Assembly (NCBI RefSeq): GCF_013122565.1
Contig: NZ_CP053258.1
Direction: 5' to 3' (one strand)
Source: Escherichia coli
Lineage (GTDB): Bacteria > Pseudomonadota > Gammaproteobacteria > Enterobacterales > Enterobacteriaceae
Length of the DNA stretch: 64,000 nucleotides
Part shown: in pieces, positions 2,353 to 34,232 of the stretch
How the letters are laid out: every line of letters begins with the position of its first letter
Position numbering within the stretch: the stretch's first letter is position 1
Notes under the pieces: generated by a model
Told to the model about the DNA's origin: nothing
What the model saw: only the letters and a program-made list of their open reading frames with translations
Database searches by the model: none
Position numbers and translations under genes: made by a program

Positions 2353-3510
2353 CTACCGCTCTTCATCCAGTTGTAACGCCACATACAGCAGCAACCTGTC
2401 ATCAAAATTGCCCAAATCAAGCCCGGTCAGTTCCGATATACGATTAAGCCGATACTCCAGAGTATTACGATGAATAAACAGCGCCTTTGACGTAGCCAGC
2501 GGTTGCACATTGTGGCGAAACCACGCCGCCAGCGTTCGTCGCAGCAAGCCGTTATTGTCCATCGCTTTCAGCCGCGCCAGCGGTCGCGCCAGTTCGTTGG
2601 CCTGCCAGTCGCCACGCAAACTGTCGAGTAACACAGGTAACATCAGATCCTGATAAAAATAGCAGCGACTTTCTGGCATCCGCTGTTTACCCACCACCAT
2701 CGTCGTTTTCGCCGTACGATAGGATCGGGCAATACTGCCAGGACCGGTAAAATAGTTGCCCAGCGAAACGCGAAAACGCAGCTGGCCGTACTCTTTCATG
2801 CGGGTAATCAGTTGTTCAACTCGCTTACGATGATCTTCTGCATCCCAGCGCCCAAAAGAGTTCAACGCCGGTTTCAACACCACCATTTCGGTCAGCGAAA
2901 CAATTGCCACCAGATTATTACGCTCGGGCGTAGTCAGCGCGTTTTGCAGTTGCTGTAACTCCGCCATTGCGCTGTCCACGCCAAGCTGACCGCTGTCGAC
3001 CTCAACAATAGCCACCACTCGCGGTTGATTGAGATCGATCCCCAGCCGTTGCGCCCATTCCGTAAGTGCGGGAGTATTTTCCTCAGCCTGAATCAGGTTC
3101 ATCACCAGTTCTTCCCGCAAACGGCTATCCTGCGCCAACAGGTGCATCAACCGCGACTGTTCCAGCATCATTTCAGCCGTCATGCAGACCAGTTCGCCAT
3201 ATTTACGCAGGTTCTCTGGTTCACCTGTCAGGCCAATTACGCCGACAATTTCACCTTCCAGCCGTAACGGTAGATTAATCCCCTGCCGCACACCGTGCAG
3301 ATGACGTGCCACCGCGTCATCAATATCGACGACTCGTCCCTGTGAAAGCACCAGCAATGCACCTTCGTGCAATTCACCAATACGCTCACGATCGCCGCTG
3401 CCGATAATTCGCCCGCGGGCATCCATTACGTTGATATTGGTATCGATGATGCGCATGGTTCGTGCCACGATATCCTGCGCCATTTTGGTATCAAGATGCC
3501 AGCCAGCCAT
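2353..3510 (-). CDS. cdaR: Carbohydrate diacid regulator CdaR (SdaR)
   Basis: Track ORF 2353..3528; the recognised N-terminus MAGWHLDTKMAQDIV begins at the second Met (3510); C-terminal helix-turn-helix region present. Confidence 0.88.
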   Translation of the reverse strand: MAGWHLDTKMAQDIVARTMRIIDTNINVMDARGRIIGSGDRERIGELHEGALLVLSQGRVVDIDDAVARHLHGVRQGINLPLRLEGEIVGVIGLTGEPENLRKYGELVCMTAEMMLEQSRLMHLLAQDSRLREELVMNLIQAEENTPALTEWAQRLGIDLNQPRVVAIVEVDSGQLGVDSAMAELQQLQNALTTPERNNLVAIVSLTEMVVLKPALNSFGRWDAEDHRKRVEQLITRMKEYGQLRFRVSLGNYFTGPGSIARSYRTAKTTMVVGKQRMPESRCYFYQDLMLPVLLDSLRGDWQANELARPLARLKAMDNNGLLRRTLAAWFRHNVQPLATSKALFIHRNTLEYRLNRISELTGLDLGNFDDRLLLYVALQLDEER

Positions 3511-3628
3511 AAGTCCTCCGTTATGCACGGCTTAGCATAAGGAAGTACGTAACGTACGGCATTGTGCAAATGCCCAAAGGATGATGAAGATGTATGGAGT
3601 TGTGGTGAAGTTCACAGATCGTAAGGAG

Positions 3629-3664: not shown

Positions 3665-5089
3665 TTACTGCATTAACAGGTAGATGGTGCTGTCGCCGCG
3701 CTGAATGTTCAGTGCCAGCACAGACGGTTTGCTGTCGAGAACTTTACGCAGTTCAGCGATGTTTTTCACTGCCTGCTGGTTCGCGCCAATAATCACATCA
3801 CCTTTCTTCAGGCCGATCTGCGCAGCCGGAGTGCCCGTTTTCACGTTGTTCACTACCACGCCCTGATCTTTGCCTTTGTTGCTCATCTCAGCGCCTTCAA
3901 TGCCGTTGAAGATGGAGCTGGAATCAACCTGATTCTGGCTGCTCTGCTGCAGTTCCAGGTTCACGTTAACCTGCTTACCGTCGCGCAGTAAGCCCAGAGT
4001 CAGTTTGCTACCCACCGGCATAGTACCCACCTGAGCACGCAGCGCGGCAAAGCTGCTGATCGGCTTACCGTTCAGTGAGGTGATCACATCACCCGCTTTA
4101 ATGCCCGCTTTTGCAGCGGAGGAATTAGGCAGAACCTGGCTTACGAAAGCACCGCGCTGGGCGTCAACTTTCATCGCTTTGGCCAGTTCGGAGTTCAGCT
4201 CAGTCCCCATAATACCCAGCTCACCGCGTTTCACCTGGCCGTATTCCACCATCTGCGAGGTCAGGTTTTTCACCATGTTACTCGGGATAGCAAAACCGAT
4301 ACCGATGTTGCCGCCGTCCGGTGCGAGGATCGCGGTGTTGATACCGATCAGTTCGCCGTTCAGGTTAACCAGCGCACCACCGGAGTTACCACGGTTGATC
4401 GCAGCATCGGTCTGGATGAAGTTTTCGTAGTTTTCGGCATTCAGGCCGCTACGCCCCAGCGCAGAGACAATCCCGGAAGTTACCGTCTCGCCCAGACCAA
4501 ATGGGTTACCAATCGCTACGGTGTAATCACCCACGCGCAGTGCATCAGAATCCGCCATCTTAATTGCGGTCAGGTTTTTTGGGTTCTGGATTTGGATCAG
4601 CGCGATATCAGAGCGCGGATCTTTGCCAACCATCTTCGCGTCGAACTTACGACCATCGCTCAGCTGGACTTTAATCACTGTCGCGTTATCAACAACGTGG
4701 TTGTTGGTGACGACATAGCCTTTATCGGCATCAATGATGACGCCGGAACCCAGCGCCATGAATTTTTGTTGCTGGCCGCCACCATTACCGCCCTGGCCCC
4801 CCTGGCAGAACGGAGAGCTCTGGAACGGAGAACCTTCCTGGCAGAACGGTGAATCATCACCGAAGAACTGCTGGAAATTACGCGGCATACGCGGCGTATT
4901 AACGGTTGTGCTACCTTCTACGTTAATGCTGACCACTGAAGGCATCACCTTTTCGAGCATCGGTGCAAGGCTTGGCATCTGCTGGGCTGTCGTTGCTGAA
5001 GATGTCTCAGCCGCCGTTGCAGAGAGCGGAGATAACGCCAAACCTAAACTCAGAGCCAGTGCACTCAGTGCTAATGTGGTTTTTTTCAT
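3665..5089 (-). CDS. degP: Periplasmic serine endoprotease DegP (HtrA)
   Basis: 474-aa ORF with signal peptide, trypsin-like protease core (GNSGGAL) and two PDZ-like C-terminal repeats; recognised as DegP. Confidence 0.96.
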   Translation of the reverse strand: MKKTTLALSALALSLGLALSPLSATAAETSSATTAQQMPSLAPMLEKVMPSVVSINVEGSTTVNTPRMPRNFQQFFGDDSPFCQEGSPFQSSPFCQGGQGGNGGGQQQKFMALGSGVIIDADKGYVVTNNHVVDNATVIKVQLSDGRKFDAKMVGKDPRSDIALIQIQNPKNLTAIKMADSDALRVGDYTVAIGNPFGLGETVTSGIVSALGRSGLNAENYENFIQTDAAINRGNSGGALVNLNGELIGINTAILAPDGGNIGIGFAIPSNMVKNLTSQMVEYGQVKRGELGIMGTELNSELAKAMKVDAQRGAFVSQVLPNSSAAKAGIKAGDVITSLNGKPISSFAALRAQVGTMPVGSKLTLGLLRDGKQVNVNLELQQSSQNQVDSSSIFNGIEGAEMSNKGKDQGVVVNNVKTGTPAAQIGLKKGDVIIGANQQAVKNIAELRKVLDSKPSVLALNIQRGDSTIYLLMQ

Positions 5090-5134
5090 GTATTTCAGTC
5101 TCGATTAACAGATAACGCAAAATTGCTGTGTTCT

Positions 5135-5162
5135 TCAGATTCGTTTTATAGCGCGAAGTTCC
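5135..5162 (-). promoter_or_regulatory. Candidate sigma-E (RpoE) promoter of degP
   Basis: Minus-strand GGAACTT (-35; plus coords 5156..5162), 16-nt spacer, TCTGA (-10; 5135..5139), about 45 nt upstream of the degP ATG; matches the sigma-E consensus. Confidence 0.6.
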
Positions 5163-5218
5163 GAACTAAAGTTTCTGCAAAAGGTAAAAATTTATTGTTC
5201 GTCTTTACAAAAGCCTGG

Positions 5219-6736
5219 TTATTGTTCTACGGCCATCAGACGTCGGTATTCATCCCACGCATAGAGGTCGGTCATACCGCTGATATAATCCTGCAGCAGG
5301 CGGCAACGGTAATAATATTCCCATAGCGGAAACTCAGGAGAATCTGACGGTAATTTACTGACAGCCTCGACATAGGCCAGCCGATGGCGCGTCGAGAGTT
5401 TGTGGAATAAGCGCGATTCAATAGGGAAACGTTTCACCCGTTCTTTTTCTACCAGTTCAGTAAAGTCTGATAACGACAGGCTTAATAAAGGACGATAAAT
5501 CTCTAATAATCCGCTAATGACCCGATAGCCCTGCAATTCAAGCTGCTCGACATCTGGATGGCTAAACACATGTTTTACAGCGACATTTTTATATAGCTTA
5601 AGAAGATCGCTGCATTCGCTGGCATCTTCCAATAATGCATGATTAAACGTTCCGGCGAAAATCGCAGGCAGATTATCAATAAATCGTTGTGCCGCATAGG
5701 GTACCAGTTTATTTAGGGTATTTACTCGTAAATACATAAAAAACTGATCTTCCGTACTGCGGCTTAAACTATTTGAGCGTGATTTTTCCCAGGCATTTTC
5801 AACCACCAGCGAAAAGAGCGAACCTTTCTCATGCTGGCCCCACGCTTCGTGCAAATGATGATAAAGCTGCTCAACGGTAAATATTCTTTTCTCTACCGCA
5901 TCTTCAAGGTCTGCCACACAATAGGAGATGTCGTCGGCAGCTTCCATAATCCACGTTAATGGAAAACGACTGTAAAGCGCCAAATTAAGTTCTTTACGCA
6001 ACCGGGCAATATAGGCTTCTTCAGAAAGATAATAACCCGGCTTTTTCATCAAATAGTGATGTGTCTCAGGCGTTTCACCACGCCACCACGCCGGACGAGT
6101 ATATTTTAAAATACCGCCAACCTGTGCCCAGGTGAGATTCATCCGCATCAATGTATGCACCAGACGAATGCCTTGTGCATTCCCCTCAAAATGACATAAG
6201 TCCTGACGAATCTTGCGCCGCAGCTCGTTAAGCGGTTCTTCCCCGTCCCGTAAACGTAGTGCCGCCACGCTGCAGCGATCGTCAGTCAGAGGCTGGCTTT
6301 CGGCATCTTCCGGGTGCAAACGTTGGCGAAACCAGTCATTTATCGCTGCTTCGCCAAAATGACCAAACGGCGGATTGCCGATATCGTGCATCAGGCATGA
6401 CATCTCAACAATGCTTTCAAAAGGTCCGGTCAGTTCATCCAGGCCGTATGCTTCCAGCAATTTAAGCTCTTTCAGACGGCTTAAAATTTCTTTGGCGATG
6501 TAGCGCCCCACCTGCTGGACTTCCATCGAGTGGGTAAGACGCGTGCGCACGGCGGCATTGCGCTCCAGTGGAAAAACCTGGGTCTTTTGTTGCAGACGAC
6601 GAATTGCCGGAGAGTTGATGATACGCCCGCGATCGCTCTCGAAGATCCGCAGGATCTCATGTTCGGTTTTAACGCCCTGCGGTGAACGGTAACGACGATG
6701 CCAGTTTATTTTTTTTCGGAAATCAATCTGTGCCAT
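5219..6736 (-). CDS. dgt: dGTP triphosphohydrolase
   Basis: 505-aa ORF with HD-domain motif ([12 protein letters not shown]); recognised as Dgt. Confidence 0.95.
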
Positions 6737-6819: not shown

Positions 6820-7518
6820 ATGAAAATCGGCATCATTGGTGCAATGGAAGAAGAAGTTACGCTGCTGCGTGACAAAATCGAAAACCGTCAAACTATCAGT
6901 CTCGGCGGTTGCGAAATCTATACCGGCCAACTGAATGGAACCGAGGTTGCGCTTCTGAAATCGGGCATCGGTAAAGTCGCTGCGGCGCTGGGTGCCACTT
7001 TGCTGTTGGAACACTGCAAGCCAGATGTGATTATTAACACCGGTTCTGCCGGTGGCCTGGCACCAACGCTGAAAGTGGGCGATATCGTTGTCTCGGACGA
7101 AGCGCGTTATCACGACGCGGATGTCACGGCATTTGGTTATGAATACGGTCAGTTACCAGGCTGTCCGGCAGGCTTTAAAGCTGACGATAAACTGATCGCT
7201 GCCGCTGAGGCCTGCATTGCCGAACTGAATCTTAACGCTGTACGTGGCCTGATTGTTAGCGGCGACGCTTTCATCAACGGTTCTGTTGGTCTGGCGAAAA
7301 TCCGCCACAACTTCCCACAGGCCATTGCTGTAGAGATGGAAGCGACGGCAATCGCCCATGTCTGCCACAATTTCAACGTCCCGTTTGTTGTCGTACGCGC
7401 CATCTCCGACGTGGCCGATCAACAGTCTCATCTTAGCTTCGATGAGTTCCTGGCTGTTGCCGCTAAACAGTCCAGCCTGATGGTTGAGTCACTGGTGCAG
7501 AAACTGGCACATGGCTAA
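6820..7518 (+). CDS. mtnN: 5'-methylthioadenosine/S-adenosylhomocysteine nucleosidase
   Basis: 232-aa [27 protein letters not shown]... recognised as MtnN (Pfs). Confidence 0.96.
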
Positions 7519-23840: not shown

Positions 23841-25090
<1,250 letters not shown>

Positions 25091-25267
25091 TAAAGTATGT
25101 AACTGGTTAATTTACATTCTGGTCGCGTGCGCAAATACGCTTTTCCTCACACAGTTGTCAAGTGTTACGTTTAGATAATTGCTATCCGGAAAAGCATCTG
25201 CTATTTATAGCGGCCTCATTTTTCCCCCGAACATGGGGATCGATAGTGCGTGTTAAGGAGAAGCAAC

Positions 25268-25723
25268 ATGCAAGAAGGGCAAAACCGTAAAACATCGTCC
25301 CTGAGTATTCTCGCCATCGCTGGGGTGGAGCCATATCAGGAGAAGCCGGGCGAAGAGTATATGAATGAAGCCCAGCTGGCGCACTTCCGTCGTATTCTGG
25401 AAGCATGGCGTAATCAACTCAGGGATGAAGTCGATCGCACCGTTACACATATGCAGGATGAAGCAGCCAACTTCCCGGACCCGGTAGACCGTGCAGCCCA
25501 GGAAGAAGAGTTCAGCCTCGAACTGCGTAACCGCGATCGCGAGCGTAAGCTGATCAAAAAGATCGAGAAGACGCTGAAAAAAGTGGAAGACGAAGATTTC
25601 GGCTACTGCGAATCCTGCGGTGTTGAAATTGGTATTCGCCGTCTGGAAGCGCGCCCGACAGCCGATCTGTGCATCGACTGCAAAACGCTGGCTGAAATTC
25701 GCGAAAAACAGATGGCTGGCTAA
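25268..25723 (+). CDS. dksA: RNA polymerase-binding transcription factor DksA
   Basis: 151-aa sequence [31 protein letters not shown]... with C4 zinc finger ([26 protein letters not shown]); recognised as DksA. Confidence 0.97.
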
Positions 25724-33635: not shown

Positions 33636-34232
33636 ATGAATTATCAACGCATAATTGTAGCGCTATTGTTAATCATCGGAATAAATACGCAATGCCTGGC
33701 TGGCTCCAGTTCGTTGAACGTGACGGTGAGGACAACCGTTACCGCCAGTACCTGCACAGCAGAGCTTCACAATGCGCAGGACCTGCAAGCGACAACAATT
33801 GATATTGGTGATGTCTATCTGAACGAACTTGCAAATAAGACTAAATATCAGAATTTCAGCCTGGTGTTTTCAAATTGTGAAGGCTTAGCCAAAGATCAGG
33901 CGACCGTCACACTTTCTCCGCAAACAGGCTGCGATGGTGCATCCAGTACGGGTGGCGGATTTCGCAACGCACTGGCCTCCAGCGACAATGATGCGGCAAC
34001 CGGCGTATCGATTGAAGTATGGACGACCAATCAGCCGGAAGGTCAGGGAAGTGTGCAGCTAAACTGCAAGACAAAACCGACCAGTATTGTCGATCTGACG
34101 GGCGCGTCAGGTGCGAACGTTGTCCACTGGTGGTTAAGCTCCAGAATTGTCGTCGCCGCGGATAACACTATCGCCGATGTACGTGCAGGGCAGTTCTCCA
34201 CCAACGCTGTCTTTTCAGTAACCTATGAGTAA
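33636..34232 (+). CDS. yadL: Fimbrial minor subunit, yadL-position
   Basis: 198-aa ORF with signal peptide; C-terminal FSVTYE donor-strand-like motif. Confidence 0.78.
   Translation: MNYQRIIVALLLIIGINTQCLAGSSSLNVTVRTTVTASTCTAELHNAQDLQATTIDIGDVYLNELANKTKYQNFSLVFSNCEGLAKDQATVTLSPQTGCDGASSTGGGFRNALASSDNDAATGVSIEVWTTNQPEGQGSVQLNCKTKPTSIVDLTGASGANVVHWWLSSRIVVAADNTIADVRAGQFSTNAVFSVTYE

Follow-up and report, generated by a model that had tools for sequence, protein, structure and literature searches.

The window analysed here, a 64-kb stretch of DNA taken at its full length, is a segment of the Escherichia coli chromosome with the gene order mtn, dgt, degP, cdaR. The promoter described below drives degP (htrA), whose coding sequence occupies positions 3665..5089 on the minus strand and matched the NCBIfam model for serine endoprotease DegP over its full length (NF008189; 935 bits, cutoff 720). 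Directly upstream of the degP promoter lies dgt, the coding sequence for a dGTPase (5219..6736, minus strand; NCBIfam NF003429, 896 bits). Flanking this pair are the ORFs for CdaR (cdaR; 2353..3528, minus strand) and for the MTA/SAH nucleosidase Mtn (mtn; 6820..7518, plus strand). We observed a sigma-E-type motif inside the 129-bp dgt-degP intergenic region, where the dgt stop codon (5219-5221) falls 90 nt before the degP transcription start site. When 341 bp around the motif were used as a query, 5424 of 5426 complete E. coli genomes had a match with at least 95% identity, and the RefSeq annotation under these matches was dgt and degP.

The core of the promoter can be read directly from the minus strand. 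It consists of a −35 element, GGAACTT, at 5162-5156 (−33 to −27 from the mapped start), a 16-nt spacer, CGCGCTATAAAACGAA, at 5155-5140, and a −10 element, TCTGA, at 5139-5135 (−10 to −6). The original prediction had placed GGAACTT-N16-TCTGA on the minus strand at 5135..5162, and the motif is present at exactly those positions. TCTGA is the original, older sigma-E −10 consensus, derived from degP and rpoH P3.

We searched both strands of the window for this pattern and found GGAACTT-N16-TCTGA only once. Upon dinucleotide-preserving shuffling, the mean chance expectation was 0.01, with a match in 1 of 100 shuffles. The looser pattern GAACTT-N15-17-TCNNA was not rare (3 observed, 1.22 expected in the window); specificity therefore comes from the match to the full GGAACTT-N16-TCTGA pattern and from its position. 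Loose sigma-E-like matches were also seen at two other places on the plus strand, at chance frequency. One (25037-25064) lies at the 3' end of the ORF 24380-25090, ~186 nt upstream of the ORF 25250-25723, and the other (33825-33852) lies within the ORF 33636-34232.

We compared the elements with the sigma-E motifs derived from 28 mapped promoters, GGAACTTTT for the −35 and (T/C)GGTCAAAA for the −10 (Rhodius et al. 2006, PMC1312014). The degP −35 matched the consensus core GGAACTT at 7 of 7 positions, and the two T's that extend the consensus GGAACTTTT were missing in the window (GGAACTTCG). TCTGA matched the TCAAA core of the 28 promoters at only 3 of 5 positions, with the TC..A frame shared. 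In the same set, a 16-nt spacer was "strongly preferred", the discriminator was 5 or 6 nt long and the distance from the −35 element to +1 was 25-28 nt (PMC1312014). The degP spacer of 16 nt has the preferred length within the sigma-E range of 15-19 nt.

The transcription start of degP has been mapped in K-12. In the supplement of Kim et al. 2012 (PLoS Genet, PMC3415461), a genome-wide map of E. coli transcription starts lists a single degP start, which lies at NC_000913 position 180844 and gives a 5' UTR of 40 nt. The upstream sequence given for this start is TGCAGAAACTTTAGTTCGGAACTTCAGGCTATAAAACGAATCTGAAGAACA, ending ...TCTGAAGAACA (PMC3415461). Because the degP start at 180884 in MG1655 corresponds to 5089 in the window, the mapped transcription start corresponds to 5129, an A on the minus strand 40 nt before the ATG. 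This start, transferred from the K-12 map, is the sixth nucleotide after TCTGA, leaving a discriminator of 5 nt, and lies 26 nt from the end of GGAACTT, which is within the spacing seen at sigma-E promoters. A start about 7 nt downstream of TCTGA had been anticipated, and the K-12 start at 6 nt agrees with this. Position 1 of the Rfam HtrA thermometer model also aligns at 5129. Its coincidence with the mapped start points independently to 5129 as the 5' end of the transcript.

To place the strain among other E. coli, we aligned the stretch that runs from the dgt 3' end into degP. The window was identical to E. coli SK1144 across this region, and the sole difference from K-12 MG1655 was two adjacent bases in the spacer (5154-5153, minus strand), which read GC in the window and AG in K-12. 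The K-12 promoter occupies the same locus with the same −35, −10 and 16-nt spacing. Its identity to the window extends downstream from −26 as far as the ATG and upstream from the −35 as far as the dgt stop, with only 5154-5153 differing. With the promoter at the centre of a 60-bp comparison, 100% identity to the window was seen in 4023 of 5422 complete E. coli genomes (~74%); the window thus carries the commoner (GC) allele.

We then assessed conservation beyond Escherichia. The degP loci were fetched from 80 species-representative Enterobacteriaceae genomes, the upstream regions were aligned, and identity to the window was computed among 76 distinct non-Escherichia sequences. Identity was 96.6% for the −35 GGAACTT, 94.2% for the −10 TCTGA and 100% for the +1 base. 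The 16-nt spacer length was kept in 73 of the 76 related sequences. Upstream, two pentamers were invariant (GTAAA at 5208-5204 and TTTAC at 5188-5184, both 100%), and the ACAAT between them (5198-5194) was 91% identical. The surroundings were far less conserved: identity was 48% in the discriminator, 62% in the stretch 5183-5163, and 55% in the first 10 nt past the dgt stop; at third codon positions it was 46% for the end of dgt and 63% for the start of degP. The variants seen in the core were conservative, namely GGAACTA (Enterobacter group) and TGAACTT in the −35, and TCTTA and TCTCA in the −10 of a few genera. Given the high identity of the motifs compared to the low identity around them, constraint acts on the promoter and on both outer pentamers and not on the surrounding non-coding bases.

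The invariant pentamers belong to a group of CpxR-type boxes at −79 to −55, upstream of and near a promoter that is regulated by Cpx. The founding papers on the regulation of degP by sigma-E and Cpx include those of Danese in 1995 and Pogliano in 1997; Pogliano in 1997 and De Wulf in 2002 reportedly obtained a CpxR footprint. The stretch 5163..5215 contained 2 exact GTAAA pentamers in 53 bp, compared to 2.8 per kb across the window. GTAAA motifs in this stretch had been placed on the minus strand as possible CpxR half-sites. Exactly one is there (5208-5204); the other exact copy is on the plus strand (5184-5188, −59 to −55) and reads TTTAC on the degP strand. On the degP strand the arrangement is GTAAA-N5-ACAAT-N5-TTTAC, with pentamer centres 10 bp apart and the outer pentamers inverted relative to each other.

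The half-site suggestion itself is supported by the literature for one box. The proximal box, GTAAAGACGAACAAT (5208-5194, minus strand; −79 to −65), is a published CpxR site, "degP1". Table S1 of PMC9600279 lists GTAAAGACGAACAAT and GTAAATTACCGTCAG as "known" degP CpxR sites and cites De Wulf et al. 2002. Compared to the CpxR consensus of tandem GTAAA pentamers 5 (4-8) nt apart, the first pentamer of GTAAA-GACGA-ACAAT is perfect and the second matches GTAAA at 2 of 5 positions. Phosphorylated CpxR sites with a GTAAA-N5-GTAAA direct repeat, such as those of the cpxP and ppiA promoters, likewise present a perfect GTAAA (at −79 to −75 in degP) followed by a second pentamer after 5 nt. In degP, however, this second pentamer is degenerate (ACAAT) and the next perfect GTAAA is inverted, so there is no clean repeat. 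The inverted GTAAA (5184-5188, plus strand) may also contact CpxR. The distal listed site, GTAAATTACCGTCAG or "degP2" (5358-5344, minus strand; −229 to −215), lies within the dgt coding sequence. It was 54% conserved, no better than the coding background, and we did not retain it as a supported element.

Published measurements show strong Cpx induction of degP, 26.6-fold in cpxA24 and 32.4-fold with NlpE overproduction (PMC9600279). Overproducing CpxR by itself left degP uninduced in one study (PMC2731931).

We also assessed the degP leader. An Rfam scan of the whole window returned two matches above the gathering score, among them the HtrA 5' UTR thermometer (RF02700; 5129-5084, minus strand), which was matched over the full model (positions 1-46) at 77 bits in cmscan compared to a gathering score of 52. 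The window also contains a full-length match to the tp2 sRNA (Rfam RF02030, 103 bits) at 62916-63029 on the plus strand. In the minimum-energy fold of the degP leader, the hairpin that pairs UUUU with the Shine-Dalgarno sequence was present but reached only −3 kcal/mol, no better than shuffled sequences (z = +0.99). Its lower stem contains an A-C mismatch, with C at UTR position 32 where the RF02700 consensus has U (A-U). We observed no covariation in the hairpin across 51 distinct leaders, and the share of cells that pair, 74.7%, was the same as the mean of the shuffles. As neither energy nor covariation supports the hairpin, it is sequence similarity to the Salmonella element that underlies the thermometer assignment. 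At the level of sequence, then, we class the E. coli degP leader as a member of the HtrA thermometer family.

The Salmonella element has been characterized in detail. Choi et al. 2017 (PMC5602114) used reporter assays and SHAPE to demonstrate that its 40-nt htrA leader is a fourU thermometer with temperature-dependent translation. The corresponding Salmonella enterica promoter, htrAp3, likewise has GGAACTT-N16-TCTGA, and its 40-nt 5' UTR starts ACAGCAAUUUUGCG. Compared to this thermometer, whose function has been demonstrated, the E. coli leader carries the A-C mismatch and its hairpin is predicted to be even weaker.

Like rpoH P3, the promoter of degP counts among the founding sigma-E promoters, and it is a standard reporter of envelope stress. 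Two further founding papers, Lipinska in 1988 and Erickson and Gross in 1989, reportedly mapped the degP start and found sigma-E dependence in vitro. In Bury-Mone et al. 2009 (PMC2731931), no gene was induced more strongly by sigma-E than degP, at 56.3-fold. Its promoter is part of a cloned library of 60 sigma-E promoters (Rhodius et al. 2012, PMC3326320) and is among those active at basal sigma-E levels (PMC3326320). In Salmonella, degP mRNA serves as a sensitive marker of sigma-E (PMC1804206). From these published data, degP is a canonical member of the sigma-E regulon.

Overall, our data suggest, with a probability of about 97%, that the element is the stress-inducible sigma-E promoter of degP/htrA, assisted by CpxR and followed by a thermometer-like leader. 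The prediction of a sigma-E promoter for degP is borne out by the sequence identity among E. coli, the geometry of the transcription start, the rarity of the motif and its conservation. Misfolded outer-membrane proteins trigger proteolysis of the anti-sigma factor RseA, which makes sigma-E available. RNA polymerase carrying this ECF sigma factor (RpoE) would then recognise GGAACTT (−35) and TCTGA (−10), 16 nt apart, and would start at the A at 5129 to give an mRNA with a 40-nt leader. Between about −79 and −55, phosphorylated CpxR would bind the conserved boxes of the GTAAA type and raise output under envelope stress sensed by Cpx. The leader may in addition fold into a weak fourU hairpin that covers the Shine-Dalgarno sequence, the structure that acts as a thermometer in Salmonella.

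An alternative explanation is that much of degP transcription, and the Cpx effect with it, comes from an overlapping housekeeping (sigma-70) promoter instead of the sigma-E elements. In this layout, the spacer sequence TATAAA (5150-5145, minus strand) would act as the −10, CpxR at −79 to −55 would take the place of a −35, and the transcript would begin ~7 nt before 5129. Across genera, TATAAA is conserved at 90%; these genera are closely related, however, and share good conservation over the entire spacer, not in TATAAA alone. Start mapping in related species also speaks for this alternative. Three htrA starts have been mapped in Salmonella, with UTRs of 40 nt (seen only under stress in the first study), 47 nt, and 215 or 449 nt, the last inside dgt (PMC5602114). 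The start with the 47-nt UTR thus precedes the one with the 40-nt UTR by 7 nt (PMC5602114), as the sigma-70 layout would have it. Klebsiella degP also keeps GGAACTT-N16-TCTGA, with a mapped start downstream (PMC3415461); there, a start at the G of TCTG was represented by 25 reads, compared to 11 for a start 9 nt further downstream (PMC3415461).

In contrast to the two additional upstream starts of Salmonella htrA, the E. coli map lists none, and its only degP start is 180844 (PMC3415461). No sigma-70-like −35/−10 pair passed a consensus scan of 4900-5500. The 56-fold induction of degP by sigma-E (PMC2731931) also counts against a sigma-70 promoter as the main source of transcription. We therefore regard this explanation as unlikely; a sigma-70-type promoter would at most be additional to the sigma-E promoter and would not replace it. 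Neither a plain sigma-70 promoter nor a dgt terminator was supported, as the consensus scan of 4900-5500 was empty for both. The scan revealed no intrinsic terminator-like site between the dgt stop and the degP promoter. In the absence of such a structure, transcription may read through from dgt into the degP region.

A further variant combines the two arrangements. Here, two interleaved promoters with starts ~7 nt apart, one recognised by sigma-E and one of the sigma-70 type (TATAAA), would share the region, the latter driven by CpxR on GTAAA-N5-ACAAT-N5-TTTAC, and the GC/AG polymorphism in the spacer might tune the balance between them. We consider this arrangement speculative and rather improbable.

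A mere coincidence of sequence, lacking any role as a promoter, has a negligible probability. Short degenerate sigma-E-like patterns do arise by chance (GAACTT-N15-17-TCNNA, 3 compared to 1.2 expected), but the full GGAACTT-N16-TCTGA pattern is expected only 0.01 times, and the gene that follows it immediately belongs to the canonical sigma-E regulon and has its mapped start at a suitable spacing. The pattern is also 94-97% conserved compared to 46-63% at neutral sites, and the mapped start and the conservation effectively refute this reading.

The sigma-E promoter thus remains the preferred reading, and the element is the already known degP sigma-E promoter with upstream CpxR boxes. What is new is trivial, namely the window coordinates and the finding that this strain has the majority GC spacer allele compared to AG in K-12. 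The result has little discovery value and serves as a positive control, in which a reading of raw sequence hit an experimentally mapped promoter to the base. Promoter, start site, CpxR boxes and leader now each have precise coordinates in the window, and the degP promoter elements are expected to work identically in this particular strain.
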